DNA of 64,000 nucleotides, taken from Acidimicrobiia bacterium (GTDB lineage: Bacteria > Actinomycetota > Acidimicrobiia > Acidimicrobiales > JANYDT01). The stretch is taken from positions 1,244-65,243 of the forward strand of contig JANMZO010000145.1 in NCBI GenBank assembly GCA_031383405.1, written 5' to 3'. Positions 10,723 to 58,189 of this stretch are shown here, piece by piece. The translations under genes and the position numbers were made by a program. Numbering within the stretch: the stretch's first letter is position 1; every line of letters begins with the position of its first letter. The notes beneath the pieces were generated by a model, which worked only from the letters and a program-made list of their open reading frames with translations, ran no database searches and had not been told where the DNA came from.

Positions 10723-10962
10723 AGTGGTTCTTTTCTGCGCGCGTTTGGGCGGGCAACCCTTTCATTTCCAACCGAATTTTGAGATTTTTCCGCGTTGGAA
10801 ACCCGTCGACGGATTCCTCAGCGAAGGCAGACGTTTCGCGAACCCAGCTTTTCGTGTTTCCGCTGGTCAGAGCGGAGAATCGCACATGCGTAATTCTACT
10901 CGACCGGGTGTGACAGACCCCCCGCAAACGGTGGGTTTTCGGAAGAAAATCCGTGGATTTCG

Positions 10963-12461: not shown

Positions 12462-12512
12462 TGGACACCTCCGACGGGATCGGCACGACACCAACGGTAG
12501 AAGCGGAAAGCG

Positions 12513-13817: not shown

Positions 13818-15212
13818 GGTCTTTATTACACGAATAAGTTCGCTGACTTGATCGTAGATGGCGCGGCGCTCTTTCATCTGCTCGGTGATTTTCTCGACCG
13901 CGTGGATCACAGTTGTGTGGTCGCGGTCGCCGAATTCCCGACCGATCATTGGATAGCTGAAGTCGGTTAACTCGCGAAAGACATACATACCAACCTGCCT
14001 GGCCGTGACCAATGGTCGGCGTCGGCTTTGCCCCGTGAGATCGACGATGGTGAAGCCGAACATGTCTGCCGTGGCGTTGAGAATCGCTTTCGCGGTGACC
14101 GGTCGAGGCTCGTTTCCCGAAAGCAGATCGGACAACACGCGCTCGGCCATTGGAAGATCAAGCGCGACCCGGTTGAGTCCGGCGTAGGCGCAAACCCGGT
14201 TGAGCGCACCCTCAAGCTCGCGAATGTTGTCTTTTATATGTGTACCGATGAAATTGAACACGTCATCGGGCACGGCTATGCGTTCGCGCTCGGCCTTCTT
14301 TCGAAGAATGGCCAGACGGGTCTCGATCTCCGGGGGTTGCACGTCGGTTATCAAACCCCACTCGAAACGGCTACGTAGGCGGTCTTCAAGCGTCGCAATA
14401 CTCTTCGGAGGACGGTCGCTTGAGATGACGATCTGGCGACCACTTTGGTGAAGGAAATTGAAGGTGTGGAAAAACTCCTCCTGCGTTCCTTCCTTGCCCT
14501 CCATGAACTGAATGTCGTCGATGAGCAGAACATCACAGTCATCGCGATAGCGACGTTTAAAACCACCGGTCGTGTTGGTTTTGATCGCGTCGACGAATTC
14601 GTTCATGAACGTTTCGGTCGAAACGTAGCGAATACGGCTGGTTCGGTAGTTCTCCCGCACATAGTGCGCTATGGCTTGGAGAAGATGAGTCTTGCCCAAC
14701 CCGGAATCACCGTAGATAAAGAGCGGGTTGTATGACCGGGCGGGCGTTTCAGCGACAGACATGGCCGCGGCATGGGCAAAACGGTTGGAGGAGCCAATAA
14801 CGAAGTCGGCGAAGGTGTAGCGCGGGTTCAACACCAGGTCGCCACTGACCCGATCGTTATTGCCGAACGGAAGTTGTGTCACCGGTCCTGGAGTCCGGGT
14901 GACTGGCTCCGGGGTGACCAACGGGTCGAGTTCGAACGTTGGCGCACCGGCCGCGCCCGCTTCAAGTACCTCGATCGACACCGTCATTCGTTGACCGGTG
15001 ACTTCCAACAGCGCGTCTGAGATGACGCCGAGATAGCGGCTTTCGATGCGCTCCTTCGCTATCGAGTGGGGAACGGCAAGAATCAGCCGGTGGTCGTCGA
15101 GGACGAGCGGACGAGCCGCGGCGAAACTGCTGTTCCACGTAGCGACCGGGAGGCGGGTACGAAGACGTGCGGCAAGCTCTGGCCAGACTGTGGCGTCATC
15201 CTCCCCGTTCAT
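13809..15212 (-). CDS. dnaA: Chromosomal replication initiator DnaA
   Basis: '[14 protein letters not shown]', '[21 protein letters not shown]' and a C-terminal DNA-binding domain. The likely start is ATG 15212 ('[17 protein letters not shown]'); the track ORF starts at TTG 15320. Confidence 0.96.
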
Positions 15213-15227
15213 GCGCTTGTCACCCGG

Positions 15228-15259
15228 TTTTCCACAAGTTCGTCCACAGATGTGGAAAT
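15228..15259. promoter_or_regulatory. DnaA boxes just upstream of the dnaA start (autoregulation candidate)
   Basis: TTTTCCACA (15228-36), TCGTCCACA (15240-48), TGTGGAAAT (15251-59). Confidence 0.55.
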
Positions 15260-15635
15260 CATATGAGCACTGATTAGTCGTTCTCTGTAACGGATCGACT
15301 GAGATAAATCCGCTGGTCAAACCACCACAACCTCAGGGCAGCACGGTAGCACTCCCTCAATCGCCTGTGTTTCGTGGCTGGCGAGGTGAGGATGAGGTGC
15401 ATGCGATTCGAAATCGCAACGGATTTCAACAGGCAGAGTGCATCGCTCAACAAACCACCGACAGTGGTGCGCAGTCCGGGCCCCGATTTCCGGCTTTGCG
15501 GGGCCTGGGTGACCATGGTCAGCCCCGCGCACCACGGTCGCACCCGTGCGGTTCTTGGCTTCGGCGCAGTCCGCTATTGTTGTTAGGTTCTGTGAACGGC
15601 CTGTACGGACGTTCTTCGCTTACCTAAGGACCGCC

Positions 15636-18441: not shown

Positions 18442-18484
18442 AAGCGCACAGCAGGCTGGCCCGGTCGACTTGGATGGGATAGAA

Positions 18485-18613
18485 CTGATCCGAAAATGGC
18501 GGGTACCAATTTTCACGTCCTCGAGACGTCCGTGCCACCGGACAAAAAGACTGATCTGAAAATGGCCACCAATTTTCACGTCCTCGAGACGTCCGTGCCA
18601 CCGGACAAAAAGA
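18485..18613 (+). repeat. Two abutting copies (66 + 63 nt) of a dispersed intergenic repeat, locus A
   Basis: Unit: CTGATCYGAAAATGGC(GGGT)ACCAATTTTCACGTCCTCGAGACGTCCGTGCCACCGGACAAAAAGA. It starts 44 nt after the jag stop. Confidence 0.9.
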
Positions 18614-18684
18614 TTGAGGGGTGATCGGCTCCTACTTCAGAATTTCAACACGAGCGGCTGTCCTTTGACCATCGGAGATAGAAC

Positions 18685-27566: not shown

Positions 27567-27698
27567 CTCAGTCTTTTTGTCCGGTGGCACGGACGTCTCA
27601 AGGACGTGAAAATCGGTACCCGTCATTTTCCGCTCAGTCTTTTTGTCCGGTGGCACGGACGTCTCAAGGACGTGAAAATCGGTACCCGTCATTTTCCG
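27567..27698 (-). repeat. Two identical 66-nt copies of the dispersed intergenic repeat, locus B (inverted relative to locus A)
   Basis: 27567-27632 and 27633-27698 are identical. Their reverse complement differs from the locus A unit at about 5 positions. The array ends 1 nt from the DegV stop codon. Confidence 0.9.
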
Positions 27699-43730: not shown

Positions 43731-46424
43731 GTGGGTGCGCTTATGGTGCAGTCTCTCGATGATTTTCGGCGTCGCCAACCGGCGCAGCAACCTGCTGGAG
43801 CGCGGCTCCTTCCTCACAACGTCGAAGCCGAGGAGTCCCTGATCGGGGCGATGTTGCTCAGCCGCGAAGCGATTGCCAGCGCCGCCGAGATCTGTTCGGC
43901 GGGTGACTTCTACCGGCCCGCGCACGGTCATATCTTTGAGTCGATCATGTCGCTGTACGCTCACGGCGAACCGGCCGATCCCGTGACCGTGGCCGATGAG
44001 CTTCGCCGGTCCGGCCTGCTCGACATGATTGGTGGTTCAGGCGCTCTCGTAACTCTTCAGGCCGGTACTCCGACCACCACCAATGCCCAGCACTATGCCC
44101 GGATCGTCGAAGAACACGCGCTCCTACGCAAGCTGATCGCAGTCGCTGGAGACATTGCTGAAATGGGTTACAGCCTCCCCGAAGACATCAGCGCCGCTAT
44201 CGACCGCGCCGAAGCGATGATGTTCGACGTCGCGCAACGTCGAACGACCGACACGATGGCCCCGCTGCGTGATCTCCTCGGCCTGAACCTCGACCGTCTC
44301 GAAATGCTCTACGAGCGGGGCGAATCGATCACCGGTATTCCGTCCGGGTATCTCGACCTCGATGAGCGTCTCAACGGTCTGCAACCCAACGCTCTCTATA
44401 TCGTCGGTGCCCGACCCGCTATGGGCAAGTCAGCGTTCGCCCTTGGCATGGCCGCGCACGCGGCACTTGAGCAGCACAAGCCGGTGTTGTTCTTCTCGTT
44501 GGAAATGAGCCACATGGAGCTCACCCAGCGTCTCTTGTGTTCCGAGGCCAAGGTCGACGCGAACCGCATGCGCAACGGCAAGCTGCTCGCCGATGACTGG
44601 CCGAAGATCACCCATGCCGTCGGCCGCTTGGCCGAAGCGCCGATCTACATCGACGACAACCCGAACCTGACGGTGATGGAGATCCGAGGTAAGGCCAGGC
44701 GCCTGAAAGCCAAGCTCGGCGACCTCGGTCTCATCGTGATCGATTACCTCCAGCTCATGACCGGCCGTTCCAACGCGGAGAACCGACAGGTCGAAGTGGC
44801 GGAGATCAGCCGGGGGCTGAAGATCCTGGCCCGTGAGCTTGAGGTCCCGGTGGTCGCCCTCTCGCAGCTCTCCCGTAATCTCGAACAACGGGCCGATAAG
44901 CGTCCGATGCTCTCCGACCTCCGTGAGTCGGGATGCATGCCGGCGTCGACCAGGCTGCGGCGGGCCGACAACGGAGAAGAAATCACGCTAGGTGAACTGG
45001 TCCTTACCCAGATTCAGCCGCTGGTCTGGTCGATCGACGAGCGCGGTCGCATGGTGGCGGCGCGGCTTACCAATGCTTTCCCGTCGGGGATCAAAGAGTG
45101 CTTCCGACTCCGGTTGGCGTCGGGTCGGTCGGTCGAGGCAAGCGCCAATCACCGGTTCTTAACGGTCGACGGTTGGAAGCGGCTTGATGAGCTCGCTGTC
45201 GACGCGTTCGTAGCGACCCCTCGGGTCCTTCCGGCCCCGCTGAACGTTTCCGATTCGTGGACCGACGATCAACTCGCCCTGCTGGCCCACCTCATCGGCG
45301 ACGGATCGATCGGCCCGAGCTTCAAATACGCAACCGCCGACCCGGCAAATCGTGACCTGGTGATCCGGCTCGCCAAGTCGCTGTTCGGCATCGAGGCGAC
45401 CTACACCCAGGAGGGGAACACCTACCAGGTGTGGTTCCCAAGCCCGTACCGTCTCACCCAGGGCACGCGGCATCCGATGAGCAACTGGACCGACCCGCTC
45501 GGTTTGTTCGGGTCGCGGTCGTGGAACAAGTTCGTTCCGCCGTCGATTTTCGGATGCTCCGACGCGCAGGTTGCGCACTTTTTGCGGCATCTCTGGGCAA
45601 CGGATGGTTCGATCACGATCAGTCGCAATGGACGCGGTGATACAGCACGCGTCTACTACGCGACCACAAGTGAGCGCCTGGCGCTACACGTTCAGCAGCT
45701 TCTGCTCCGTCTGGGTATTCGGTCGAGCATTGGTATGGCGAAGAAAGAACGAGCCGGTGGTGGCGAGTACCGCCCCGGCTTCTCGGTTCGGATCCAGGGC
45801 ACCTTGGATCAAACCCGGTTCCTAACGTGTGTCGGCTGCTTCGGGCAGCGGGGAGACGTGATTTCGGAGGCACTCGCAATCGTGGCTCAACACACCCCGA
45901 ACCCAAACGTGGATCTTGTGCCGTGGGAGATTCTGGGGCAGGTGCGAGACGCCATGGCCTCTGCTGGTGTGACCCAGCGTGAACTGGCGACGACTTTGGG
46001 CGAGACCTACTGCGGTTCGTACCTACTCGGCAACGCATCGCGGCCACGGAGGTTTTCTCGTGATCGCCTGCGTCGCATCGGCGAAGTCGTTGGTTCGGCT
46101 TCCTTGGTCGACGCCGGGACCTCAGATGTGTTCTGGGACCGTATCGTGGCGATTGAGTCGACAGGCCCGCAGCCAACATTCGACGCAACCGTGGAAGGAA
46201 CGCACAACTTCATCGCCGAGGGGATTGTGGCCCACAACTCGTTGGAGCAAGATGCCGACGTCGTGATGTTTTTGTACCGCGACGAGGTGTACAACCCCGA
46301 ATCGCCCGACCGTGGTACCGCCGAGATCATCGTCGCCAAGCACCGATCGGGCCCGGTCGGTACAAGTCGCCTGGCCTTTCTCGACCACTACACGAAGTTC
46401 GCCAACATGGCGAAGGGCATCTGA
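43731..46424 (+). CDS. dnaB: Replicative DNA helicase DnaB, interrupted by an intein
   Basis: N-extein 'LPHNVEAEESLIGAML' and Walker A 'GARPAMGKSAFAL'. 'LSDLRESG' is followed by the intein and then 'SLEQDADVVMFLYRDE'. The exteins total 462 aa. Confidence 0.96.
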   Translation: MGALMVQSLDDFRRRQPAQQPAGARLLPHNVEAEESLIGAMLLSREAIASAAEICSAGDFYRPAHGHIFESIMSLYAHGEPADPVTVADELRRSGLLDMIGGSGALVTLQAGTPTTTNAQHYARIVEEHALLRKLIAVAGDIAEMGYSLPEDISAAIDRAEAMMFDVAQRRTTDTMAPLRDLLGLNLDRLEMLYERGESITGIPSGYLDLDERLNGLQPNALYIVGARPAMGKSAFALGMAAHAALEQHKPVLFFSLEMSHMELTQRLLCSEAKVDANRMRNGKLLADDWPKITHAVGRLAEAPIYIDDNPNLTVMEIRGKARRLKAKLGDLGLIVIDYLQLMTGRSNAENRQVEVAEISRGLKILARELEVPVVALSQLSRNLEQRADKRPMLSDLRESGCMPASTRLRRADNGEEITLGELVLTQIQPLVWSIDERGRMVAARLTNAFPSGIKECFRLRLASGRSVEASANHRFLTVDGWKRLDELAVDAFVATPRVLPAPLNVSDSWTDDQLALLAHLIGDGSIGPSFKYATADPANRDLVIRLAKSLFGIEATYTQEGNTYQVWFPSPYRLTQGTRHPMSNWTDPLGLFGSRSWNKFVPPSIFGCSDAQVAHFLRHLWATDGSITISRNGRGDTARVYYATTSERLALHVQQLLLRLGIRSSIGMAKKERAGGGEYRPGFSVRIQGTLDQTRFLTCVGCFGQRGDVISEALAIVAQHTPNPNVDLVPWEILGQVRDAMASAGVTQRELATTLGETYCGSYLLGNASRPRRFSRDRLRRIGEVVGSASLVDAGTSDVFWDRIVAIESTGPQPTFDATVEGTHNFIAEGIVAHNSLEQDADVVMFLYRDEVYNPESPDRGTAEIIVAKHRSGPVGTSRLAFLDHYTKFANMAKGI
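44934..46238 (+). mobile_element. DnaB intein (435 aa) with a LAGLIDADG homing-endonuclease domain
   Basis: Starts at Cys ('CMPASTRL') and has block B 'ASANHRF'. Two LAGLIDADG motifs, 'LLAHLIGDGSI' and 'FLRHLWATDGSI'. Ends 'GIVAHN' with +1 Ser. Inserted in the conserved RESG/S(I/L)EQDAD site. Confidence 0.92.
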
Positions 46425-46867: not shown

Positions 46868-49800
46868 CTACAGAACCGGCCACTGTGGGCATGTCCTCCG
46901 GTATGAAGCGGCCCCGTGGCTGAGGCGCCATTCCGCCCGCGTAAGGTTGCGTCCAGCCAGTTGACAGGCGGACCTGCGAAGAACGTCACTTTCGAGGTCA
47001 AGACGCACGAGGGGTCCAACGAGACCTCCGACCAGAAGGCCGTCACCTTTCACGGTGAGCTTCGGCCTTTGGGAATCAGCATCGAAGGGTCCCGCAACCG
47101 GTTCGAGTGAATCGCTGTCAAGGAAGCTGCCGTCACCTGTCACCAGGAGGGACCCATCAGCCGTGAAGGCTCTCGGGGTGACGCTGCGCTGCAGCGGGAA
47201 TCGACGGAACCGTTCGACCGTGCCGGTTCCGACGTCGTAGATAGCGAGCCACTGATTTCCGAAGCCGACGGCCAACCGTCGACCGTCGGGGCTGAATTGA
47301 GGCACAATCTGTCCGTCTGTCACGGACCGGTTTGGCGGTGGGAGTATTCGTAGCCGCGTACCGTCGCTCACCTGTCGAATTTCCGTGCGACCGTCCTGGG
47401 TCGAGATCGCCAGGAGTGAACCATCGAGGCTGAGGTCCCATCCGAGACCGAACAGTTCGGCTCGTTCGACCAGGCGCCCGAGGGGAATGGAGTGGATCAC
47501 CGGCGAGCGTGGCGGCGTGCCCTTGGGCACGTCCCACAACTCGATCGTCCGGGTCGGGGTGGTGCGGGCAACCATGACCGCCGTCCCCGTCGGCATGGAC
47601 GCAAGGGGTATCGCGAACATGGGGTCCCATAACGGCTTCCCAGCGGAGGAAACCACGATGGTCCGGTCGCGGCCGTCGGTCCCCTGATAGCCGATTTGGA
47701 GCCGGTCGACGGCGACCCAACCAAAACTGGGCGTGGCGTCTGGTGCGACGTCGGGGAGTGCGACCGCGTGATCCCGGTGGCGTTTGAGGTCGCGGATGTT
47801 CACGGTGTTGCCGTGAACGACGGCACGCAAGGAACCGTCGGGATTGGCGTCTGATGTCGTCTCCAGCGCACTGTCCAATGTGGCACCGGCGGGTGTGAGT
47901 CCGGACCGGATTGACAGTACCGAACCCGCCAACGTCGAGACCGCAAGGCGTGTCTCCTGCCCGCGCGTCGGCAGACCGAAGGCCGGAGACCAGGGAAGTG
48001 ACCCGCCCGGAAGCTGGCGTTCGCTGCCGTCACCAAGGTCAACCAATCGTCCCCCGCCCTTCGACTGGGCGAAGACGAGAAACCGGTGATCCATCGACGT
48101 CGTGCACGCCAGATCGTCGGAGGTGCTGATCTGCCGGGAGGCCACCAAGTCCCAGAACTGCAGCGCGACGGCGCTTTCGCATGGTCGGCCGACCGGGAAG
48201 TAGCTGGGCTGGTCGGACTGTCGACCCTCAGTCCCGACCGTTGTGCGCGATGGGTCCGGCGTTACGACAACGGCCCGCTGATCGCGTTCCCCGGCATACA
48301 GGATTGGCCAACCATGGATCACCTGGAACGTGTGACGTAACTTCTGCAACGGGTTGTCGACAATGAGGCTGCTGAACGTTGCGCCCGCCTGGGAGGCGGA
48401 AAGGTGAACCGACAGGTAGTTGCCGTGCGGGCTGAACGCCACGTCGGTGAAGCTGGTGAACCCCCTCACGACGACTACCGGGTCCGGTCGCGCGAGGCGA
48501 AGGTCGAAAGCCGCAATCGGCAGTTTGTCGGCGGGGTCGGCGGGGTCGGCGGGGTCGGCGGGCGAAAACACCACGACGGCGGAGCTGCCATCCGGCGACA
48601 GCGCGAACGCACCGCTGGCGACCTCGCCGAGTCGGTGGCTGATTTTCGCCGAACCGGGCGTTCCGACCAGCACGCGACCTTTCGGGTCGGCGGCGAGCAT
48701 CACCGGTGCCTTGAGGGCGAAGCGTGGCATTGGAATGGCGCCGATCTCTCCGCCCGGTACCGGGCTCCGGGCGGCACTGCGCCACAAATCGAGCATCACG
48801 GGCCTGGACGCAGACCCCGCAGCGAGGTCGACGGCGACGAGGTAGCGGCCGTCGGGGCTGAAGGCGTCGCCATCCAGATAGGAACCTGTCACGCCTTTGC
48901 CCCTGGTGAGGAGCTTGGTTGTCGTTGCGTCGATGACGGTGTATTCGGCGGGTTTGAATCGCTGCACCACGAAGGTCCGGCCATCGGGTGAAATCTGGAT
49001 GGATGGGGCCAGAGTCCGGCCGGAGGTGCCAGTGCCGGTGACGGTCGGAGACACCTCCCGGTGGACCCGCCGTTCATGCCCGGGCTCAAGGTCCCAGATC
49101 TCCAGTGCGTTGGTCGCTTTCGCGTCATCGGCCGAGGTGACGGCGACGTACCGGTTCGACGCACCGAACTGGATGCTCACCACCCGACCCTCCCACTTGC
49201 CGATCCCTCTGAGGGTCGTGGTGTTCGGGCCGACATCCCACACGTAGAACTGCGGGTCGCCCGCCGGCTCGTGACCGATGGTGGTCGTGAGCCACGCGCC
49301 CGCGGCGACTCGCCGGCCGTCGGCGGTGATCGACGGTTTCGACAGCAGGCCGGGGGCGTTTGGATCCTCCGGAAGGTGCAATGTCCGATCGGTCCCATCA
49401 GCAACGTGAACGATGTCGAGGAGCGTTCCCCAAACCCGCCTTGCAGCTGCACCGGAACGATCGGGGTCGACCCGCTCCATGACTGACGACGCGTCAACGG
49501 CGAGCAGGAGTGAACGGACGAGTTGGTCGTTCACTGAAGCCCTCGCAGTTTCAGCGAGCGAGACGGCGAACGCCATGTCACGCTCCGTTCGTCGGCGTCC
49601 GGACTGTCTGCTCGATGCCACAGCAAGGGTCCCGGCGACGAGTGCCAATGAGATAATGGCGGAGGCGACGGCCAGGATCTGTCGACGCCGACGCCGGATG
49701 CCTTTCTCGGAGGCTTCGACGTAGCGGATCACCGTCGGCGGCACGCCGGTGTGATCGGGCTGGGTCTCAAGCCACGTCCGCGCCTCCTTCGCTGCGTCGG

Positions 49801-51400
49801 GGCCCAGGAGGAAATCGTCGCCTCCGCTCCACGCTGCCGCCCGTTGTTCCAGACGGGTCCGACGGACAAGGTCGTCACGACCCACCCGGACCGCCTCGGC
49901 GAGCCGCGGCCACGACTCGATCAGCCGGTCATGCACCAGGCGGGCCGTGCCGGCATCGGCGACGATGAGCCGTTCATCAGCCAGACGGTCCACGAGAACG
50001 GCTTCCGAAGCCGAGAGAGAATCAAGCGCCACGGGTTTGCTGCCAGCGACCCGATTGTCGGGTATCTGCACGAACCGCATCAGGAGCTGGTTGAGCGCGT
50101 CACTCTGGTCACCGGCGAGGCGGGCTTCGGCCTGCGAGGTGCGCCGACCGATCGCCCCTTCGATCCGGCCCACTTCTTCGTAGTGGTGGATGCCCATGGT
50201 GTCATCGTGCGCCGCGGTGACGCAGTCATACATCTGCTGCAACGTGAAAGCGATCAACGGGAGTGAACGGCCGGGGTCGTCTTCAGCACCCCGCATGGCA
50301 TCGTCGATGATCAGCTGGGTGAGGCCGGGTTCTATCGACAAATCCGCCTTCGACGCCGGCCCCTCGATCACGAGGGCCAGGGCGGAACGGTCGAGAGGGG
50401 CCACCACGAACGGTTCGCGGATCATCGGCCCGATCGGGGCGAGCGGCTGCATCTCGTTCAGCCGGTCCTGCCGGAGGGTGATGACGAGCGTGACGGGAGA
50501 GTGGGCCACGAGACCGGTCGCCATGACCTGGAGGAAGGGGTCGCGGTCGGCTGGGAGGAGCGTGGTCAACTGTTCAGCCTGATCGATCACGATGAGGAGA
50601 CGCCGTGAGCCCGGCCGGGCGTCGAGCAGACGCGATGCCACGCGGGCCAGCCCCTCTGACCGTAGTGTGGAGGCGTCGACCGGATGGCCGCCGGCTGCGG
50701 TCAGTGATGCGGCGAGCCGATCGAGCGGGAACGTTCCAGGCTCGAAGGGTGGAGCAACAACCCAGCCCTTCTGATCGAGGAGTCGAGGCACCACACCGGC
50801 ACGTACCAGTGACGACTTGCCCGCACCCGACGCCCCGATGATGGCGAACAACTGCCCATCGGGTTCAGGGATGGACGGATCGATACGGTCGAGCACCCGG
50901 CGCACGTCAAGGTCGCGACCGAAGAACACGGCAGCGTCGGACTCGTCGAAGGAACGCAGCCCCGGATAAGGGGATCGTCGTCGGTCCCATCGGCCGCGAG
51001 GCACCGAGCCGATGTCGGTCGTAAGTCGTTCCACGAGTTCGCGTGCACTTGATTCGAGATCACGCTCGAGTCGGATGCCCTGCACCTGGGTGAGAATCGG
51101 GTGCGGTGACAGTGGCGACTCGAGATCGAGCGGATAGACGGGCTTCGCGCGTTCGAGCGCCAAAGCGATTTCGGTGTGACACCACATGGAACGCTGCGAG
51201 GCGGCCGAATTCAGGAATACCACGGCCTGACACAGACGCAACTCCCGGAATAACTCGTGTTGCCAGTCGCGGCCGGGCGCGATCCCATCATCGTGATCCG
51301 TGTCGAGGAACACGTCGTGTCCCGCCGCTCGTAAAACCGCAGCCAGCTGTTCGGCGGCTCCTCGCTCCGACGAACTATGACTGATGAAGCAGTCAGCCAT
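46868..51400 (-). CDS. TIR domain / STAND (nSTAND-like) P-loop NTPase / single TM helix / large beta-propeller repeat protein
   Basis: 1510 aa. TIR: 'CFISHSS...VVFLNSAASQRSMWCHTEIALA'. NTPase: 'PYPGLRSFDESDAAVFFGRD', Walker A 'GASGAGKSS', Walker B 'LLIVIDQAEQ'. Hydrophobic helix 'ILAVASAIISLALVAGTLAVAS' at aa 575-596. Many 'SPDGR/TADG' repeat signatures follow. Confidence 0.85.
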   Translation of the reverse strand: MADCFISHSSSERGAAEQLAAVLRAAGHDVFLDTDHDDGIAPGRDWQHELFRELRLCQAVVFLNSAASQRSMWCHTEIALALERAKPVYPLDLESPLSPHPILTQVQGIRLERDLESSARELVERLTTDIGSVPRGRWDRRRSPYPGLRSFDESDAAVFFGRDLDVRRVLDRIDPSIPEPDGQLFAIIGASGAGKSSLVRAGVVPRLLDQKGWVVAPPFEPGTFPLDRLAASLTAAGGHPVDASTLRSEGLARVASRLLDARPGSRRLLIVIDQAEQLTTLLPADRDPFLQVMATGLVAHSPVTLVITLRQDRLNEMQPLAPIGPMIREPFVVAPLDRSALALVIEGPASKADLSIEPGLTQLIIDDAMRGAEDDPGRSLPLIAFTLQQMYDCVTAAHDDTMGIHHYEEVGRIEGAIGRRTSQAEARLAGDQSDALNQLLMRFVQIPDNRVAGSKPVALDSLSASEAVLVDRLADERLIVADAGTARLVHDRLIESWPRLAEAVRVGRDDLVRRTRLEQRAAAWSGGDDFLLGPDAAKEARTWLETQPDHTGVPPTVIRYVEASEKGIRRRRRQILAVASAIISLALVAGTLAVASSRQSGRRRTERDMAFAVSLAETARASVNDQLVRSLLLAVDASSVMERVDPDRSGAAARRVWGTLLDIVHVADGTDRTLHLPEDPNAPGLLSKPSITADGRRVAAGAWLTTTIGHEPAGDPQFYVWDVGPNTTTLRGIGKWEGRVVSIQFGASNRYVAVTSADDAKATNALEIWDLEPGHERRVHREVSPTVTGTGTSGRTLAPSIQISPDGRTFVVQRFKPAEYTVIDATTTKLLTRGKGVTGSYLDGDAFSPDGRYLVAVDLAAGSASRPVMLDLWRSAARSPVPGGEIGAIPMPRFALKAPVMLAADPKGRVLVGTPGSAKISHRLGEVASGAFALSPDGSSAVVVFSPADPADPADPADKLPIAAFDLRLARPDPVVVVRGFTSFTDVAFSPHGNYLSVHLSASQAGATFSSLIVDNPLQKLRHTFQVIHGWPILYAGERDQRAVVVTPDPSRTTVGTEGRQSDQPSYFPVGRPCESAVALQFWDLVASRQISTSDDLACTTSMDHRFLVFAQSKGGGRLVDLGDGSERQLPGGSLPWSPAFGLPTRGQETRLAVSTLAGSVLSIRSGLTPAGATLDSALETTSDANPDGSLRAVVHGNTVNIRDLKRHRDHAVALPDVAPDATPSFGWVAVDRLQIGYQGTDGRDRTIVVSSAGKPLWDPMFAIPLASMPTGTAVMVARTTPTRTIELWDVPKGTPPRSPVIHSIPLGRLVERAELFGLGWDLSLDGSLLAISTQDGRTEIRQVSDGTRLRILPPPNRSVTDGQIVPQFSPDGRRLAVGFGNQWLAIYDVGTGTVERFRRFPLQRSVTPRAFTADGSLLVTGDGSFLDSDSLEPVAGPFDADSQRPKLTVKGDGLLVGGLVGPLVRLDLESDVLRRSACQLAGRNLTRAEWRLSHGAASYRRTCPQWPVL
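48527..48562. repeat. 4 x 9-bp in-frame repeat inside the TIR-STAND gene
   Basis: (GTCGGCGGG)x4 encodes 'PADPADPADPAD' on the minus strand. Confidence 0.9.
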
Positions 51401-51625
51401 GGGAGATCATCACGACGTGGGGTGATGAACGATTGGACCCGATTCGGATGCGTCCGATACGAACTGGCGTCATCTCCTGGGAGGTTACACGAGTGAACCG
51501 GTTGCCTCCGAGAGACCTGAATTTCGTCTGGATAACCGCCGTGTCGCTCCGGATGTCCTTCTCACGTGGACGTATTCGTCAACCGTTGACCGAACGCTCG
51601 AGCCACGACGGGAGTAAGCGCTAGA

Positions 51626-53506
51626 TTGCCCACGATGTCCCCCGGTGCCGAACCATCCGTAACAGGACGCTCGAGCCTCGATTTGAAAGCCCGACGACTC
51701 CGCGACAGGTTGCGGATCGCCGTCCAACCCGTGTTGGCGGGGATCGCCGTCCTCACGCTCGTCTTCGGCAGTATCGGATACCACACGTACCTTTCACGTC
51801 ACGGGCTCCCAGCGGGTCCGGTCGATGTCGCGTACGCCCAACTCGACCTCTTCCGTCTCGGAAACCGCCCGGACGGTGCTCTCCCGTGGACCTTGCAGGT
51901 CGCGAGGGCGCTTGTCCCGATAGTGGTTGGCTACGGGTTCTTTCGAGCGACGTTCGCGCTGTTTCGCGAGCGGGTCGACCGTTTGCGCCTGCAGACCCGA
52001 AGCGGCCAGGTGCTCGTCATTGGGACCGGTCCGGTGGTTCGCGACTTTGCGACCGCTATGCGGCGTCTGCATCCCAAGATTGTCGTCCTGCGGCACGAAC
52101 CGGACACGGCCCTGAGCCCGGGTTCGCTTCTCCGGGGGACGCTGAGCTTCCGGGGAGACGCCACGGTCGCGGAGGTCGTCGAGGAGGCGGGGCTCGGGCG
52201 GGCGACGACCGTGGTTGTCTTAACCGACGACGATTCACTGAATCTGACCCTGGTTCTTCGCGCGCGAAGCCGCGCCGCTGCGGCGGGTGTCGCGGTTCGT
52301 GCCGTTGCTGCCGTGAGCCGCGCTGAGCTCTGCCGGAGCCTACGGGTCGACGCGCTGAACGACGCGAACAACCGGTGCTCCGTCGACTACATCAACACGG
52401 CCGAACTCACCGCCCGCACCATCGTCGCGGAACTTCGACGGGTCCTCGACCCTCCCACCCCGACCCGTTCCCCGGCGGCGCCTGCGCGCCGACTGACCAT
52501 TCTCCTCGACGCACCCCCCGTACTTGCCTCCCAGGTTGCGGTTCGCATCGCCCGCGAGGTTGACAACGTCAACAGTGGATCGAACGATGCTCCGGTGTCG
52601 GTCACGGTGAGCTTTGTCGGGGCCGATGCACCCTTCGCCGTGGAGGAGGCCCGCCGGTGGGCGCCCGGTCTCGACGGGACCATCCAACTCGGCGCAACAG
52701 TGGACATCACCACCGGAGACGACCAGATGACGGCGGTGGCGGGTATTGTCCTCGCGAGGGTCGGCGTCGAGTCGATGGCGGAGGCGATTCGTCTGGCCGG
52801 TCGGATGTCCAATGACGGCATCATCGTCGTGGGTGCAGTCGACGCCACGGCGTTGGCGCTCCTCACCCCGCCCGACGACGCTGCGGGCGCCCGTATCGTC
52901 CTGGTCGATACCGGTTCATGGGCCCGTGACCCGGAGCTCGTCATCGGCGGCACGGTTGAACACATCGCTCGCGCGACCCACGAGAACTACCGGGCTGCAT
53001 ACGTCGAGGCATTGACCCTCGACTCCCGTCCGACGGACAGCTCCTCCCCTTCCCGGCCATCGCTGGAGGTCAAGGACATCGCAGGGTTCTCATCGGGTAT
53101 CCCCACCGTGGGGAAATCCGATCCCGCGTTCGTCGCGTGGCCTCAGCTGGCCCCGCACTTCCGGGAGTCCAACCGGGCGCTGGCCCGCAGTGTCGCGGCG
53201 AAGCTCGCCGCGGTTGGTTGCATGCTCGTACCGAGCGGACTTCCGTCTGTCCGCTGGCGGGACGACGAGATCGAACTGCTGGCTCGGCTCGAGCACATTC
53301 GGTGGTGCGACGAACGTCGTTCGGCCGGTTGGCGTCCGGGGCAGCGTGACCCGGCGAGCCGGACGACACCGTTCCTGGTTCCGTGGGAGGAGCTCGATGA
53401 CTCGGCGAGAGAACTTGATCGGGCGGTCGTGAGGGATCTGCCGCGGTTCCTGGCGGACCTTGGCTATGCCGTGCTCCGGGTCTCCCGACCTGCCGTCGAC
53501 AGGTGA
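51626..53506 (+). CDS. Membrane protein: two TM helices with a degenerate K-channel-like pore loop, RCK/TrkA-N-like Rossmann domain(s), and a C-terminal RyR domain
   Basis: TM1 'VLAGIAVLTLVFGSIGY', loop 'VDVAYAQLDLFRLGNRPDG', TM2 'ARALVPIVVGYGFF', and 'VLVIGTGPVVRDF'. RyR: 'LARLEHIRWCDERRSAGWRPGQRDPASRTTPFLVPWEELDDSARELDRAVVRDLPRFLADLGY'. Start is TTG 51626 or ATG 51635. Confidence 0.7.
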   Translation: MPTMSPGAEPSVTGRSSLDLKARRLRDRLRIAVQPVLAGIAVLTLVFGSIGYHTYLSRHGLPAGPVDVAYAQLDLFRLGNRPDGALPWTLQVARALVPIVVGYGFFRATFALFRERVDRLRLQTRSGQVLVIGTGPVVRDFATAMRRLHPKIVVLRHEPDTALSPGSLLRGTLSFRGDATVAEVVEEAGLGRATTVVVLTDDDSLNLTLVLRARSRAAAAGVAVRAVAAVSRAELCRSLRVDALNDANNRCSVDYINTAELTARTIVAELRRVLDPPTPTRSPAAPARRLTILLDAPPVLASQVAVRIAREVDNVNSGSNDAPVSVTVSFVGADAPFAVEEARRWAPGLDGTIQLGATVDITTGDDQMTAVAGIVLARVGVESMAEAIRLAGRMSNDGIIVVGAVDATALALLTPPDDAAGARIVLVDTGSWARDPELVIGGTVEHIARATHENYRAAYVEALTLDSRPTDSSSPSRPSLEVKDIAGFSSGIPTVGKSDPAFVAWPQLAPHFRESNRALARSVAAKLAAVGCMLVPSGLPSVRWRDDEIELLARLEHIRWCDERRSAGWRPGQRDPASRTTPFLVPWEELDDSARELDRAVVRDLPRFLADLGYAVLRVSRPAVDR

Positions 53507-54465
53507 CCTGGTCTGCTTGTCATCTGTACGAAGTATGCAAGATTAGGACCGTGAGTTCAGTAGCGACACCCGCATGCCTCGATCCCGTGGCCCTCCACGA
53601 GTGGCACCCGGTAAGTGCGATCGACGAGATAACGCCCGGCCGACTGCATTGCACCGTGCTCCTCGGCGAGACCGTCAGCTACACACGTGACTGCTCCGGC
53701 CAGCCCTCCATATGGCTGGGTCGCTTCGATCCCGCACATTCGTCGAAGGGTGGCGAGGTCGATCTCAGCCAGGTCACCGAACGGCTTGCCACGAGGGTCA
53801 AGTTCGGTTACCTGTGGACGACGCTGGGTAGCCCCGACCACGAGATCTTCGACATCCCTGAATGCGACGAAGCTGACCGCCGGATTCTCAACGGCGGGAG
53901 TCTGATGGTCAACGTTTCAGCCCCGAGGGCGGTCGAGAACTTTCTTGACATGGGCCACTTTCCGTATGTTCACACCGGGCTCCTCGGCATCGAGCCTCGA
54001 ACCGAGGTCGTCGAGTACAACGTCGAAACCACCGACGATCAGGTCCTCGCAACCGGGTGCAAGTTCTACCAACCGGTGGCGGCCGCCAGTGCCGTCGGCG
54101 GTCAGGTAACCGACTACACCTATCGTGTCCCGCATCCATACTGCGTGATGCTCTACAAGTCGGTGCACGCGGATCCGACCCGTATGGACGTCATCGCCCT
54201 TTTCAACCAACCGATGACCGAGGAACGCATCCGGGCCCACAACTTCCTCGCCATGGTCGATACGGTGAGCTCCGACACCACTCTCAGGCATTTTCAGCAG
54301 CTGATCTTCGGACAGGACAAAACGATTCTGGAGAGTCAGTACCCCAAGCGACTTCCCCTCGACCCTCGGGCCGAGACTCCGATCAGAGCAGACAAAAGCG
54401 CCATCCACTACCGCCGCTGGCTTTCGGCCAAGGGCCTCACATACGGCGTTATCGCGGCTGCGTGA
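53503..54465 (+). CDS. Rieske-less non-haem-iron oxygenase catalytic subunit (NdmC-like architecture); start 53503 or GTG 53551
   Basis: Fe motif 'VENFLDMGHFPYVHTG' and 'IFGQDKTILESQ'. The N-terminal ~100 aa align positionally with a Rieske domain but lack the CxH...CxxH ligands. Confidence 0.75.
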   Translation: MTWSACHLYEVCKIRTVSSVATPACLDPVALHEWHPVSAIDEITPGRLHCTVLLGETVSYTRDCSGQPSIWLGRFDPAHSSKGGEVDLSQVTERLATRVKFGYLWTTLGSPDHEIFDIPECDEADRRILNGGSLMVNVSAPRAVENFLDMGHFPYVHTGLLGIEPRTEVVEYNVETTDDQVLATGCKFYQPVAAASAVGGQVTDYTYRVPHPYCVMLYKSVHADPTRMDVIALFNQPMTEERIRAHNFLAMVDTVSSDTTLRHFQQLIFGQDKTILESQYPKRLPLDPRAETPIRADKSAIHYRRWLSAKGLTYGVIAAA

Positions 54466-54476
54466 TCGGACAGGAA

Positions 54477-56267
54477 ATGACCGCCCCGATGACCCAGTGG
54501 TACCCGGTCGCCCGGAGCGACGACCTCCCCCGACGGCACGTCTATCAGGGACTTCTGCTTGGACGCGAACTCGCCATATGGAGGGCCGATGACGGTTATG
54601 TCAACGTCTGGGAGAACCGGTGCCTTCATCGTGGTGTCCGCCTGACCATCGGCCACAACGAAGGCTGGGAACTTCGCTGCCAATACCACGGCTGGCGCTA
54701 CGCGAACCGGTCCGCGGGCTGCACTTACATTCCGGCGCACCCGGCTGATTCCCCGGCGCGCACAATCTGCAACGCGACCTTCCCGGTGATCGAACGGTAC
54801 GGACTCGTGTGGACCGCCGAAGCACCGATCGGCGGGCCACCTGAAGTTGCGGGTCTGGAAGCTGGATCCCCGTTTGTTCTGCGCAGCCTGCCCGTCAACG
54901 TCGAGCCTTCGGTCGTGCTCGACGCGCTGGCTGGGTACCGCTTCGCCCCTTCGTCGGCGCTGATCGACGCCACGCGTGGCCCGGGTTCTGACACGGATTC
55001 CGAGCTGTCCGTGACCAACCGGGGCGACAGTTGGATCGAACTCACTGCAACACTGGGTGGGGAGTCGAACTCTGTGGTGTTCTTCGTGCAGCCCGTAGAT
55101 TCGGCGAGGTCGGTGATACGAAGTGTGCTTAGCATTTCACCGAACGTCGGATCGATGCTTTCGGTGCTGCGCTACCACGCCGGAAGACTCACCAGATTTC
55201 GTGATGCGCTTGAACACGACGCGGCGAAACGACAACTGCCCGAAGCCATGGTGCCGCGGATCGGTCAGGTCTCACTGGAACTTTCGACCATGCCTGAACG
55301 GTCTCCCGACGGCCGCGCAGGGGCTCTTCTGCGGGTGGTCGTGGCTCGAAAGCGAATGGTCGGCGATGACATAGTTTCTTTGGAACTCGAACCGGTCGAC
55401 GGCCAACTGCCGACCTTCCAGCCCGGGGCCCACATCGATGTGCACTTGCCGAACGGGGTTGTTCGCCAATACTCGCTCGTCAACGGACCCGGTGAGCTGA
55501 GTCACTATGTCATTGGCGTGAAGCTCGAACCGCAATCGCGTGGAGGATCGTCATGGCTGCACGACGCCGTATCGGAAGGTGATCTTCTCGCCATCTCGGA
55601 ACCGCGCAACAACTTCCCGCTGCGCCGAGACTCCTTTCACACGATGCTGATCGCCGGCGGTATCGGCGTCACGCCACTTCTGGCCATGGCTCAGGCCCTC
55701 CACGTGAGTTCTCTCGCTTTCGAACTGCACTACTTCGCCCAGTCGACGGAACACCTGGCCTTCCCGGGAGTACTTGACCGGTTGGGTGACCGGGTCACCG
55801 TCCATCTCGGGCTGACTCCCACCGGCACCGGCGAGGCGCTGCGTTCGCTGCTCGCGAATCCGATGGAAGGCCGCCATGTCTACATCTGTGGCCCCGGCCC
55901 GATGCTCGACACCGCTCGGACGACGGCGGCCGCGGCCGGATGGTCCGATGAGACGGTGCATTTCGAATACTTCAAAAACTCGACGCCGCTCGATACATCG
56001 ACATCGTTCGAAGTGGAACTTGCCCGTTCAGCGCTGACCTTGACGGTGCCCGAGGGTGCGTCGATCATGGAAGTGCTCCGGGCGAACGGTGTTGCGGTGC
56101 CGTCGTCGTGTGAACAGGGAGCGTGCGGCACCTGCGTCGTCGCGGTTCTGGCTGGTACGCCCGAGCATCAAGACGTGTATCTCAACGACTCGGAACGTAC
56201 CGCCGGAGACCGGATGACCATCTGCGTCTCGCGGTCGCGGACCCCTCGACTCGTGCTCGACATTTAG
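54477..56267 (+). CDS. Rieske [2Fe-2S] domain fused to a PDR/VanB-type reductase (FMN/NAD + plant-type ferredoxin), NdmD-like architecture
   Basis: ATG 54477 after GGACAGGAA. Rieske 'CLHRG...CQYHGW', reductase 'RQYSLVNGP' and 'IAGGIGVTPLLAM', C-terminal 'CEQGACGTCVV...ICVS'. The track ORF (54057) includes an unlikely 140-aa upstream extension. Confidence 0.8.
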   Translation: MTAPMTQWYPVARSDDLPRRHVYQGLLLGRELAIWRADDGYVNVWENRCLHRGVRLTIGHNEGWELRCQYHGWRYANRSAGCTYIPAHPADSPARTICNATFPVIERYGLVWTAEAPIGGPPEVAGLEAGSPFVLRSLPVNVEPSVVLDALAGYRFAPSSALIDATRGPGSDTDSELSVTNRGDSWIELTATLGGESNSVVFFVQPVDSARSVIRSVLSISPNVGSMLSVLRYHAGRLTRFRDALEHDAAKRQLPEAMVPRIGQVSLELSTMPERSPDGRAGALLRVVVARKRMVGDDIVSLELEPVDGQLPTFQPGAHIDVHLPNGVVRQYSLVNGPGELSHYVIGVKLEPQSRGGSSWLHDAVSEGDLLAISEPRNNFPLRRDSFHTMLIAGGIGVTPLLAMAQALHVSSLAFELHYFAQSTEHLAFPGVLDRLGDRVTVHLGLTPTGTGEALRSLLANPMEGRHVYICGPGPMLDTARTTAAAAGWSDETVHFEYFKNSTPLDTSTSFEVELARSALTLTVPEGASIMEVLRANGVAVPSSCEQGACGTCVVAVLAGTPEHQDVYLNDSERTAGDRMTICVSRSRTPRLVLDI

Positions 56268-56271
56268 TGCA

Positions 56272-56334
56272 CTGACGCGAAAATGGCCACCGATCTTCAC
56301 GTCCTCGAGACGCCCGTGCCACCGGACAAAATGA
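56272..56334 (+). repeat. Single copy of the dispersed intergenic repeat, locus C
   Basis: CTGACGCGAAAATGGCCACCGATCTTCACGTCCTCGAGACGCCCGTGCCACCGGACAAAATGA: about 7 differences from locus A unit 2. It starts 5 nt after the reductase stop. Confidence 0.85.
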
Positions 56335-56374
56335 CTGAGATGCACGAGGCCGGAGACCGTGAGACCCTGAAAAC

Positions 56375-58189
56375 ATGATCAAGCTCTACGACTACGAACT
56401 TTCGGTCAACTGCTATAAGCAACGGCTGATGATGAACATCCTCAACGTTCCCTTTGCGTCGGTCCTGATCGATTTCTTTCCCGGCTGGGAACACAAGGGC
56501 GAGGCCTTCGCGGCAATCAACCCGCTCGGTCACATTCCGGTGATCGACGACGACGGCTACATCCTTCGAGATGCCCATGCGATTCTCGTGTATCTGGCCA
56601 CCAGATACGACCCGGGCGGTCCTTGGTATCCGACCCGCGAGCCGAAGGTCCTCGGGGAGGTGGCGTCTTGGCTGCTCTTCGCCGAGGGTACGACCAACAC
56701 CGCGTCGGCGGCGCGACTCCACGACACCCTTGACTACCCCTTCGACATCGATACCGTCCGGGCCGGTGCCCATCGGTTGTTTCGCGTGCTCGATGAGCAC
56801 CTGTGGTTCCACGAACAACAGGGCTGCGACTGGGTCGCGTCATCGCCTCACCCGACGATTGCCGACCTGGCCCTCTTCCCGGACATCATGCTCTCCGAAC
56901 AGGGCGGAATCAGCCTGGTCGACTATCCGGCATTGCGCCGCTGGACCGACCGGTTCAAGCGGGTTCCGGGATTCAGCGTGATGCCCGGCATCTACCCGGC
57001 GGCTCCGGATACGTCCGCACAACGAGAGCCCGCCGCGTCGGGCGTACCCGGCCGCGCGGTCAGTATTGCAAGACGTGATGATCCCGACTCCGGAAACGAC
57101 GGTCCCGTGACCCTCGCTTCGGAGGTTGCCCCTGCGTGTTCCCGGGGACCGGACCCGATAGTGAACGAATGGTTTCCGGTGGCCTCGGGTTCGGAGGTAA
57201 CTCCCGGATCGATGCACGCGTTCATGTTGCTCGATGAGCGGTTCGTTCTCCTCTGCGGAAACGACGGCGAGGTTCTCGTGACCCGCGACCGATGTTCGCA
57301 CCGGGGCGCCCAACTGAGTCTCGGGTCCTTCGACGGGGATCGGCTTCAATGCGTCTACCACGGCTGGCAGTTCGATACCGGCGGTGTCTGCCGATTCCAA
57401 CCGGCCCACCCGGATGTGACACCTCCGGAGATAGCCGGGCTGCGACCCGTACACGCAAGATTCGCCTTTGATCTGTGGTGGGTGTGTATCGGCGACGAGC
57501 CACGAAATCTCCCTCTCTACGGAGCATTCGACGGCTATCCCGGTCGCACCACGATCTGTGCTCCGAAGCGGGTGCTGTCGTCAGGTCCTCGTGTTGTGGA
57601 GAACTTTCTTGACATTGCGCACTTCCCGTTCGTTCACGGTGGGTACCTGGGGCGGGTTCCTGAAACCAACGTCGACGACTACGACGTAAGCATCGTCGAT
57701 GGCGAGTTGTTGGCGACGAACTGTCTTTTCTTTCAGCCCCAACCGGGTCCGGCCGGTGGCGGTGGCGGTGTTGTTAGGTACACATATGGTGTGTCGCACC
57801 CGTACGCAGCTCGCCTTGTCAAGATTCCGAGCGAGGCCGACGGCGGCGCCCGTGAGGGTTTTGAGATCATGCTCGTGGTGAGCCCCGAGAGCGAGTGTTC
57901 GAATCGGGCGTGGATGATCACGACGGTCTACAACCCTGATGCCGACCTTTCCGCCTTCAACGCCTTCGGTGCGTTGATCTTTGACCAGGATGTCGACATC
58001 GTGGAATCGCAGCGTCCGTCGCTGCTCCCGCTGGCTCCCACTGATGAAGTGCATCAACGGGCCGATCGGATGAGTCTCGCCTATCGCCGCTGGCTGCTCG
58101 ACCGGGGAATCCGATACGGAACGTCGTTGAACACGGCCGAGCGCCGGAACGGAACCACCGTTCGGCTACCGAACGTTTCGCTTTCATGA
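56375..58189 (+). CDS. Glutathione S-transferase-like domain fused to a complete Rieske non-haem-iron oxygenase
   Basis: GST N-terminal domain 'MIKLYDYELSVNCYKQRLMMN...INPLGHIPVIDDDGYILRDAHAILVYLA'. Rieske 'CSHRG...CVYHGW'. Fe motif 'VENFLDIAHFPFVHGG' and 'IFDQDVDIVESQ'. Confidence 0.8.
   Translation: MIKLYDYELSVNCYKQRLMMNILNVPFASVLIDFFPGWEHKGEAFAAINPLGHIPVIDDDGYILRDAHAILVYLATRYDPGGPWYPTREPKVLGEVASWLLFAEGTTNTASAARLHDTLDYPFDIDTVRAGAHRLFRVLDEHLWFHEQQGCDWVASSPHPTIADLALFPDIMLSEQGGISLVDYPALRRWTDRFKRVPGFSVMPGIYPAAPDTSAQREPAASGVPGRAVSIARRDDPDSGNDGPVTLASEVAPACSRGPDPIVNEWFPVASGSEVTPGSMHAFMLLDERFVLLCGNDGEVLVTRDRCSHRGAQLSLGSFDGDRLQCVYHGWQFDTGGVCRFQPAHPDVTPPEIAGLRPVHARFAFDLWWVCIGDEPRNLPLYGAFDGYPGRTTICAPKRVLSSGPRVVENFLDIAHFPFVHGGYLGRVPETNVDDYDVSIVDGELLATNCLFFQPQPGPAGGGGGVVRYTYGVSHPYAARLVKIPSEADGGAREGFEIMLVVSPESECSNRAWMITTVYNPDADLSAFNAFGALIFDQDVDIVESQRPSLLPLAPTDEVHQRADRMSLAYRRWLLDRGIRYGTSLNTAERRNGTTVRLPNVSLS

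Follow-up and report, generated by a model that had tools for sequence, protein, structure and literature searches.

The question raised by this locus is whether two divergent genes of an Acidimicrobiia bacterium form one signalling system and, if so, of what kind. The genes lie in a window of 64,000 nucleotides from contig JANMZO010000145.1, which is the whole stretch of DNA that was analysed. They encode a large protein with a TIR domain, an nSTAND1 NTPase, one transmembrane (TM) helix and a beta-propeller region (gene 1) and a channel-like membrane protein with RCK and RyR domains (gene 2). The original prediction, made from the letters of the window, had delimited both open reading frames (ORFs) and assigned their domains, and the ORF list, the translations and Pfam searches bear it out on both points (Table 1). 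Comparative genomics and the recent literature support the view that the gene pair represents TIR signalling with a new effector or receptor module and a STAND-fused, membrane-anchored sensor. The recurrent pairing of the two families makes them a candidate module for immunity or signalling, whose ion channel would be gated by an NAD derivative made by the TIR domain.

The gene 2 family was collected by an exhaustive hidden Markov model (HMM) search, which at E<=1e-30 returned 2428 clusters (50% identity); most of the proteins are full-length, with ~600 amino acids (aa). Word-indexed protein searches with gene 2 gave merely 7-11 matches each, dominated by generic TrkA_N proteins. Members of the family that are annotated carry the names ‘RyR domain-containing protein’, ‘RCK N-terminal domain-containing protein’ or ‘hypothetical protein’. 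The sub-alignment sharing the motif LPESL[KR]ESN served as the seed for the locus scan, in which neighbouring genes were searched with purpose-built HMMs. A second, independent sample comprised 66 metagenome loci picked solely by a gene 2 peptide motif. The counts of loci with TIR or other conflict-type genes within 5 kb are based on the 44 loci, out of 80 non-redundant ones, that had at least 5 kb of flanking sequence.

That near-identical relatives of gene 2 (95% and 89% identity) retain the divergent TIR-nSTAND1 gene is trivial. Relatives at only 27-55% identity also adjoin TIR genes, of many architectures and in several phyla (Table 1), and the pairing spans several actinobacterial classes, Gemmatimonadota and Proteobacteria; the predicted co-occurrence thus reaches well beyond this genome. 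A TIR or DUF4062 gene was found within 5 kb of the gene 2 relative in 26 of the 44 loci, and a gene with a TIR, DUF4062, STAND, WD40, SIR2, SLATT or RelA/SpoT-SLOG domain in 37. The density of TIR-like ORFs was 0.12/kb within 2.5 kb of the channel gene vs 0.02-0.05/kb beyond. Where a TIR-like gene lay at most 5 kb from the channel gene (n=27), it was the immediate neighbour in 18 cases, on the same strand in 12 and separated by a gap of less than 150 nt in 9; all nine sampled TIR HMM matches were verified as Pfam TIR_2. The adjoining TIR gene is apparently often in an operon with the gene 2 relative, and four loci (L012, L018, L066, L069) have the channel gene followed by a small lone TIR gene. 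This conservation of a TIR gene beside a dedicated effector-type gene is a layout of the Thoeris type. One further locus holds two tandem TrkA_N-RyR channel paralogues followed by a TIR gene (L024:3-1799 and L024:1832-3883), which suggests that hetero-oligomeric channels are possible.

Because TIR and other conflict genes recur beside divergent gene 2 relatives, the pairing seen in the window is not a local accident. Were it fortuitous, gene 2 would be a housekeeping cation channel regulated by NAD(H) or ADP that happens to stand beside a self-sufficient, Avs-like TIR-STAND gene. Such a reading could appeal to the divergent orientation of the two genes, to those gene 2 relatives that have no TIR neighbour and to the overlap between the gene 2 stop codon and a GTG at 53503, which hints at coupling to the oxygenase cluster that follows. 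The adjacency to TIR genes, however, recurs in many lineages with varied architectures and gene orders and with short or overlapping gaps, whereas the oxygenase neighbour is kept only in the 95%-identical relative (L001) and nowhere else among the loci compared. Chance adjacency of genes 1 and 2 appears largely refuted by these comparisons, and we regard this explanation as very improbable.

What gene 1 brings to the pair is a TIR domain of the putatively enzymatic class, predicted to be under the control of an NTPase. The TIR_2 profile scored 70.7 bits (Pfam cut-off 28). Glu77, which the original prediction had placed at the catalytic position of NAD-cleaving TIRs, is invariant in 13 of the 13 TIR domains adjoining gene 2 relatives, in an alignment with just three invariant columns. 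When a profile of these 13 domains was searched against the PDB, it matched SARM1, the bacterial TIR NADase AbTIR and plant TIRs, and Glu77 was aligned onto the Glu of the SARM1 motif DWVHKEIV, which we take to be the catalytic E642; the gene 1 TIR sequence on its own gave no PDB matches, and the 13-TIR profile was needed. The NCBIfam model Thoeris ThcB4 matched the TIR region at 48.7 bits, below its cut-off of 220. The nSTAND1 module (PF20703) scored 278.8 bits vs a cut-off of 27.1, with Walker A and Walker B intact and the motif PYPGLRSFDESDAAVFFGRD located at aa 144-163. Pfam beta-propeller, PD40 and WD40 profiles matched the last ~900 aa, all of them weakly, and beyond the hydrophobic helix, at aa 692-1413, there are eight [ST]x[DH]G blade motifs. 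The predicted TIR domain, nSTAND-like NTPase, quoted motifs, single hydrophobic helix and propeller repeats are thus all present. The propeller is presumed to be extracytoplasmic, and by itself gene 1 belongs to the nSTAND1/TIR-STAND class already described.

Gene 2 was modelled with AlphaFold2 from an alignment of 48 family members (pLDDT, predicted local distance difference test, 88.1; pTM, predicted template modelling score, 0.85). In the model a long TM1, a short pore helix and TM2 lead into a first Rossmann domain (aa 109-255, numbered on the 607-aa form) and a second one (aa 269-415), and the C-terminus is a helical tandem. In Foldseek searches against the PDB the potassium channel GsuK ranked first (E 8.5e-8), followed by Slo2.2, Slo1, MthK and TrkA; judging by the entry titles, NAD- and ADP-bound GsuK structures were among the top matches. 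The C-terminus matched Repeat12 of human RyR3 over ~170-217 columns (6uhb, 9ls7). The Pfam matches agree with the model, with TrkA_N at aa 129-235 (E 9.2e-12, 45.7 bits vs a cut-off of 23.8) and RyR (PF02026) at aa 549-616 (E 1.3e-11, 45 bits vs 27.4). In the family alignment a degenerate first repeat (ARAxHExY ... LVPW ... ESNR) precedes the canonical one (EHxRW ... P.LVPW ... DR). From the tandem RCK-like fold and the two RyR repeats it follows that gene 2 combines a 2-TM pore, an RCK-like ring built from tandem domains and a RyR domain of two repeats. The two TM helices around a K-channel-like loop had been foreseen correctly and are reproduced as TM1-pore helix-TM2 in the model; of the Rossmann fold and the RyR domain one copy each had been recognised, where the model and alignments show a second Rossmann domain and, in front of the clear RyR repeat, a degenerate one. 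The model, the Foldseek matches and TrkA_N together give the 2-TM pore, pore helix and cytoplasmic RCK of GsuK/MthK-type channels. The K+ selectivity filter sequence TVGYG is absent from gene 2, which has RLGNRPDGAL at this position (family consensus LxSGxV), and Pfam Ion_trans_2 was not detected in it. Gene 2 is not a standard K+ channel.

The original prediction had further proposed that the RyR domain could receive the TIR product, and this has since gained backing by analogy with phage proteins. According to two 2026 preprints, phage RyR-domain proteins bind or cleave TIR-made 2'/3' cyclic ADP-ribose (cADPR) (PMC13232231; 10.64898/2026.06.04.730250). They act as a glycosidase or as sponges, and most others tested bind TIR products tightly (PMC13232231); a Pectobacterium phage RyR sponge sequesters 3'cADPR (10.64898/2026.06.04.730250). 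The glycosidase RyDEP (DyoEdafos gp78, MN234187), which a tblastn search with the RyR repeat did not find, was aligned with gene 2. Three of its four ligand residues are kept, His75, Trp78 and Asp117 corresponding to His538, Trp541 and Asp579 in 607-aa numbering. In the family the position of RyDEP His100 is occupied by His in ~40% of the sequences, by Thr or Ser in about half and by Asn in a few (~115 of 163 sequences matching the motif). A comparison of the channel genes of L004, L013, L052, L053, the window and others indicated that the residue varies with the class of the partner: Ser (ESP...KEIDR) with DUF4062-NACHT plus WD40, His (LHP) with TIR-FHA or a lone TIR, and Thr (TTP) with TIR-nSTAND1, among others, in a small sample uncorrected for phylogeny. 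Such co-variation would be expected if the RyR pocket co-evolves with the signal made by the partner.

The same residues could also point to a different task, in which gene 2 would be a brake or sink whose RyR domain, with its RyDEP-like dyad, hydrolyses or sequesters cyclic ADP-ribose, either to curb damage to the cell itself or to return the system to rest; killing would be left to the TIR domain, through NAD+ depletion. The catalytic dyad of RyDEP (H75/D117) is indeed retained as H538/D579, the phage proteins do work as glycosidase or sponges (PMC13232231), and partners of the TIR-STAND and TIR-SIR2 kinds could plausibly act as NADase effectors on their own. Yet the 2-TM pore and the tandem RCK ring, features conserved throughout the family, would be superfluous in a sink; among the RyDEP homologues assayed that have these residues, most bind without cleaving (PMC13232231); and the channel gene followed by a small lone TIR gene in the four loci named above resembles the Thoeris layout of effector and ThsB. 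We therefore consider a role as a sink improbable.

Further genes of the same islands also bear on the function of the pair. In ~20 metagenome loci the channel gene is accompanied by a second family of RyR proteins (830-1135 aa); forms of 830-930 aa have the architecture RelA/SpoT-TPR-LSDAT(SLOG)-RyR. The example examined (L039:3266-5755) has RelA_SpoT, TPR, LSDAT_prok and RyR matches and looks like an alarmone or toxin-type effector activated by a nucleotide signal; further members were seen in L034, L036, L040, L041, L047-L049, L056, L057, L077, L082 and L084. SLATT and patatin genes are also present in these islands. One TM helix was predicted in the STAND partners and in about half of the TIR partners checked, between the TIR or NTPase module and a C-terminal propeller, NHL, lectin-like or TPR domain; the STAND partners of L002, L006, L008 and L011 carry the equivalent of the gene 1 helix. 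Sensors whose helix crosses the membrane would have the topology of Toll-like receptors, and both components of the system would then lie at the membrane.

Taken together, we favour the explanation that the gene pair is a membrane-centred, STAND-controlled, Thoeris-like TIR module with a nucleotide-gated channel effector, a reading that we hold to be probable, if only just. It is favoured because of the domains and predicted fold, the position of Glu77, the conserved neighbourhood and the RyDEP ligand residues that are kept, and also because of the SLOG-RyR proteins in the same islands, the NAD- and ADP-bound GsuK structures and the TM helices of the partners. In this module the beta-propeller of gene 1, probably outside the membrane, would detect a cue, upon which the nSTAND1 NTPase would oligomerise and cluster the cytoplasmic TIR domains. 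The clustered TIRs, with Glu77, would cleave NAD+ to ADP-ribose (ADPR) or a cyclic ADPR isomer, and RyR Repeat12 on the tandem RCK ring of gene 2 would bind this product. Binding may open or lock a pore that is probably not K+-selective, and the resulting ion flux or depolarisation would halt growth as abortive infection or another stress or death response. The domain content, the glutamate at the catalytic position and the conserved neighbourhood are observed, as are the predicted fold and the conservation of RyR ligand residues; from them we infer signal production, ligand identity, gating, topology and biological trigger.

Several observations weigh against this reading. TIR-STAND proteins are usually read as self-sufficient, NAD+-depleting effectors (10.64898/2025.12.03.692087). 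Genes 1 and 2 are divergent in the window and not co-transcribed, their location is core and origin-proximal and not a recognisable defence island, ~40% of the adequately flanked loci are free of TIR-like genes out to 5 kb, and conflict-type genes are missing from 7 of the 44. In gene 2 itself the position of RyDEP His100 is Thr562, the glycine motif of the first Rossmann domain is degenerate (GTGPVV vs the family consensus GLGxxG) and no PADLOC model matches the protein. The loop RLGNRPDG is unlike all characterised selectivity filters, and for this reason conduction is deduced from the fold.

The machinery could also be the same and the trigger not a phage. The proteins would then serve envelope or environmental sensing in the style of Toll-like receptors, with neighbouring cells, cell-wall fragments or antibiotics leading to stress signalling or programmed death in actinobacteria; it is in the trigger alone that this explanation differs from the favoured one. 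The layout of TIR, optional STAND, single TM helix and propeller, NHL, lectin-like or TPR domain in gene 1 and many partner TIRs speaks for it, together with the core origin location without mobile-element or defence neighbours, and viral contigs yielded no relative of gene 2. For nSTAND systems of multicellular prokaryotes, functions resembling apoptosis have been proposed (PMC7159879). The extracytoplasmic topology on which such sensing would depend is, however, only predicted, the co-occurring SIR2, patatin, SLATT and RelA/SpoT-SLOG genes typify anti-phage islands, and the validated pairs of TIR and membrane effector are anti-phage (10.64898/2025.12.03.692087). A non-phage trigger seems unlikely to us, though less so than a sink.

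Beyond the STAND-controlled, Thoeris-like module itself, a wider and more tentative proposal is that the families represent a widespread bacterial axis. A transmembrane TIR in the style of a Toll-like receptor would make an ADPR-derived messenger, RyR Repeat12 would read it and gate a GsuK-like channel, and the RelA/SpoT-SLOG-RyR effectors of the islands would read it too; in prokaryotes such an axis would correspond to the link between cADPR and the ryanodine receptor in animals and might be its forerunner. We consider this proposal a real possibility, though less likely than not.

If the favoured explanation is correct, a new class of TIR-immunity effector (a nucleotide-gated RCK/RyR channel) and a new host-side sensing domain would be added to bacterial immunity, and STAND-fused TIRs would be able to signal, not merely to deplete NAD+. 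The phage RyR sponges and glycosidases would be explained as mimics of a host receptor module. A tractable bacterial system would also become available for the ligands of RyR Repeat12 and their coupling to channel gating, a question not yet settled for cADPR and the ryanodine receptors of animals.

Table 1. Features of gene 1, gene 2 and their surroundings in the window, and TIR-type neighbours of gene 2 relatives at comparison loci (L numbers).
Sequence	Feature	Position	Strand	Remarks
Window	Gene 1, TIR-nSTAND1-TM-beta-propeller protein	46868..51400	-	1510-aa ORF with stop; ORF list, translation, Pfam
Window	TIR domain, gene 1 aa 1-125	51026..51400	-	TIR_2 at aa 5-119, E 1.9e-19
Window	Glu77 codon GAA, putative catalytic glutamate	51170..51172	-	In SMWCHTEIALA, aa 71-81
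Window	nSTAND1 NTPase module, gene 1 aa 144-525	49826..50971	-	E 1.4e-82
Window	Walker A GASGAGKSS, aa 189-197	50810-50836	-	Gene 1 nSTAND1
Window	Walker B LLIVIDQAEQ, aa 268-277	50570-50599	-	Gene 1 nSTAND1
Window	Single hydrophobic helix, aa 575-595, predicted membrane anchor	49616..49678	-	Kyte-Doolittle 2.38 over 19 aa
Window	C-terminal PD40/WD40-like propeller region, aa ~640-1510	46871..49483	-	Presumed sensor; weak Pfam beta-propeller matches
Window	Divergent intergenic spacer	51401..51625	.	End shifts to 51682 or 51730 with later TTG/GTG start of gene 2
Window	Gene 2, TM-RCK-RCK-RyR channel-like protein	51626..53506	+	626-aa ORF; 607 aa from TTG 51683
Window	Gene 2 TM1	51686-51799	+	AlphaFold2 secondary structure
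Window	Gene 2 pore helix	51818-51853	+	AlphaFold2 secondary structure
Window	Gene 2 filter-position loop RLGNRPDGAL	51854-51886	+	Between pore helix and TM2
Window	Gene 2 TM2	51887-51961	+	AlphaFold2; full-length GsuK, MthK and Slo chains are top Foldseek matches
Window	First Rossmann/RCK (TrkA_N) domain	52007..52447	+	Glycine motif degenerate, GTGPVV
Window	Second Rossmann-like domain	52487..52927	+	AlphaFold2 strands/helices 269-415; Foldseek GsuK RCK, TrkA; tandem RCK as in GsuK/TrkA/Slo
Window	Degenerate first RyR-like repeat, ARATHENY ... VAWPQL ... ESNR	52931..53212	+	Low-confidence insert; family alignments, RyDEP alignment
Window	Canonical RyR repeat	53240..53482	+	Pfam RyR; PDB matches RyR1-3 and B. 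thetaiotaomicron RyR
Window	Gene 2 codons H538; W541; T562; D579	53294-53296; 53303-53305; 53366-53368; 53417-53419	+	P0001 numbering
Window	VanA_C-only oxygenase ORF	53503-54465	+	Catalytic domain only; GTG overlaps gene 2 TGA
Window	Rieske + FNR-like reductase + plant-type ferredoxin ORF	54057-56267	+	True start probably after 54465
Window	GST-Rieske-VanA_C fusion	56375-58189	+	Third ORF of unusual oxygenase cluster 3' of gene 2
Window	Intergenic repeat copies	56271-56339; 18484-18554; 18550-18618; 27567-27617; 27633-27683	+; +; +; -; -	
L001 (95% identity), L002	TIR-nSTAND1-propeller neighbour			As in the window
L003 (53% relative)	Divergent patatin gene, then TIR-nSTAND1 gene			TIR 76% identical to gene 1
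L004, L013 (~30% relatives)	TIR-FHA			
L006, L008, L011, L014	TIR-SIR2 + nSTAND1-WD40			Solirubrobacterales
L012	Lone TIR			Phycicoccus; 12 bp downstream
L015	TIR + nSTAND1-TPR			Gemmatimonadota; a few kb off
L017	Three TIR genes including TIR-NB-ARC-TPR			Phytohabitans
L018	TIR-TPR			Halieaceae (gammaproteobacterium); 4 bp downstream
L012, L018, L031	TIR, single TM, C-terminal NHL/beta-propeller, 3-keto-disaccharide-hydrolase-like (lectin-like) or TPR	L012:4675-5901, L018:10401-12617, L031:6663-7901		
L066, L024, L079	Same TIR-TM-C-terminal-domain layout	L066:2075-3667, L024:4081-5382, L079:5311-6549		

The boundaries of gene 2 leave some room at its 5' end. Candidate starts are TTG 51626, TTG 51683 (the choice of the gene caller, giving the 607-aa protein P0001) and GTG 51731, and close relatives begin 16 residues inside the 607-aa form. 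Because the start is uncertain, the spacer between the two genes measures 225-330 bp; the predicted gap of 225 bp holds for the first start and is exceeded with the later ones. No sigma-70 consensus was detected when the spacer was scanned, and the terminator signal in it was not above chance. At the other end, the TGA stop codon shares bases with a GTG at 53503 that belongs to the following ORF, the first of the oxygenase cluster. A linkage between gene 2 and these oxygenase genes, an alternative raised in the original prediction, was rejected, since the VanA_C-like ORF is common to L001 only.

The genes gyrA, gyrB, recF, dnaN and dnaA lie upstream of the pair at 6156-15320 (-), and dnaB directly adjoins it. 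The presence of the former five in the window identifies the chromosomal origin region of a high-GC bacterium (~62%), and the divergent pair therefore sits in the core genome. Around the pair in this genome no mobile-element genes and no further defence genes were seen nearby. Two side observations concern the rest of the window. The dnaB gene product (43731-46424, +) contains an intein with a LAGLIDADG homing endonuclease, as judged by Intein_splicing and LAGLIDADG_3 matches within aa 413-836. An intergenic repeat of ~55-65 bp is present in five copies (86-92% identity), four of which form two tandem pairs, and its predicted secondary structure was not significant (z = 0.49).

The module was finally compared with known systems. 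Eukaryotic ryanodine receptors and the ADPR-gated channel TRPM2 offer parallels: in the ryanodine receptor the Repeat12 fold is likewise joined to a cation channel, and the SLOG(LSDAT)-RyR proteins of the channel-gene islands recall TRPM2. TRPM channels carry an LSDAT SLOG domain. The pore family, size and organisation of these animal channels are unrelated to those of gene 2, and evolutionary continuity is not demonstrated. GsuK, MthK and Slo (PDB 4gx0, 4gx5, 4gx2) resemble gene 2 in having a pore helix within a 2-TM pore and, behind it, RCK/Rossmann domains in tandem, whereas gene 2 is without TVGYG, has a degenerate GxGxxG motif and carries an extra C-terminal tandem RyR domain. Phage RyDEP and RyR-Tad belong to the same Pfam family as the RyR domain of gene 2 (PF02026) and have the ligand-contacting His, Trp and Asp in common with it; they are small soluble phage dimers by which the signal is destroyed or sequestered, whereas gene 2 is a host protein with two repeats per chain fused to a channel.

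Gene 1 shares the effector-NTPase-repeat architecture of the TIR-STAND/nSTAND1 conflict systems and of the NLR-like Avs (AVAST) proteins (PMC7159879; PF20703). It differs from them in the TM helix that parts the NTPase from the repeats. TIR-STAND and Avs proteins are treated as single-gene systems whose TIR depletes NAD+, whereas here a specific partner family is conserved. RyR and TrkA are both absent from the main text of Kaur et al. 2020 (PMC7159879), and among the papers searched none joined Thoeris with TrkA. The systematic Thoeris survey left out TIRs in Avs/STAND proteins because they were read as NAD+ depleters without a partner (10.64898/2025.12.03.692087).

The original prediction knew of no described system with this pairing. 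Neither RyR nor TrkA is mentioned in the text or tables of the survey. The statement needs amending in that type X Thoeris pairs a small ThsB TIR with an ‘ion channel’ effector, ThsK, and has been validated in Bacillus, and type VII pairs a TIR with a SLATT protein and uses a cADPR signal (10.64898/2025.12.03.692087). When the models of described Thoeris effectors in PADLOC were applied, gene 2 had no match and gene 1 matched ThsB-like TIR models only, weakly. The ThsB TIR regions of type X are ~140 aa long (Table S1 of the survey), come from Bacillus and Vibrio and cluster with type II. Relatives of these TIRs in plasmids and viral contigs had only type II Macro effectors, integrases and restriction genes as neighbours, none of which matched the RyR or TrkA_N HMMs. 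The gene 1 TIR further differs from Thoeris TIRs in its fusion to an nSTAND1 NTPase, a TM helix and a propeller. By its published description, type X Thoeris is the closest described system: in both, the conserved neighbour of a TIR gene encodes a membrane protein, the putative effector for a TIR-made NAD derivative, and the loci with a channel gene followed by a small TIR gene have a two-gene layout.

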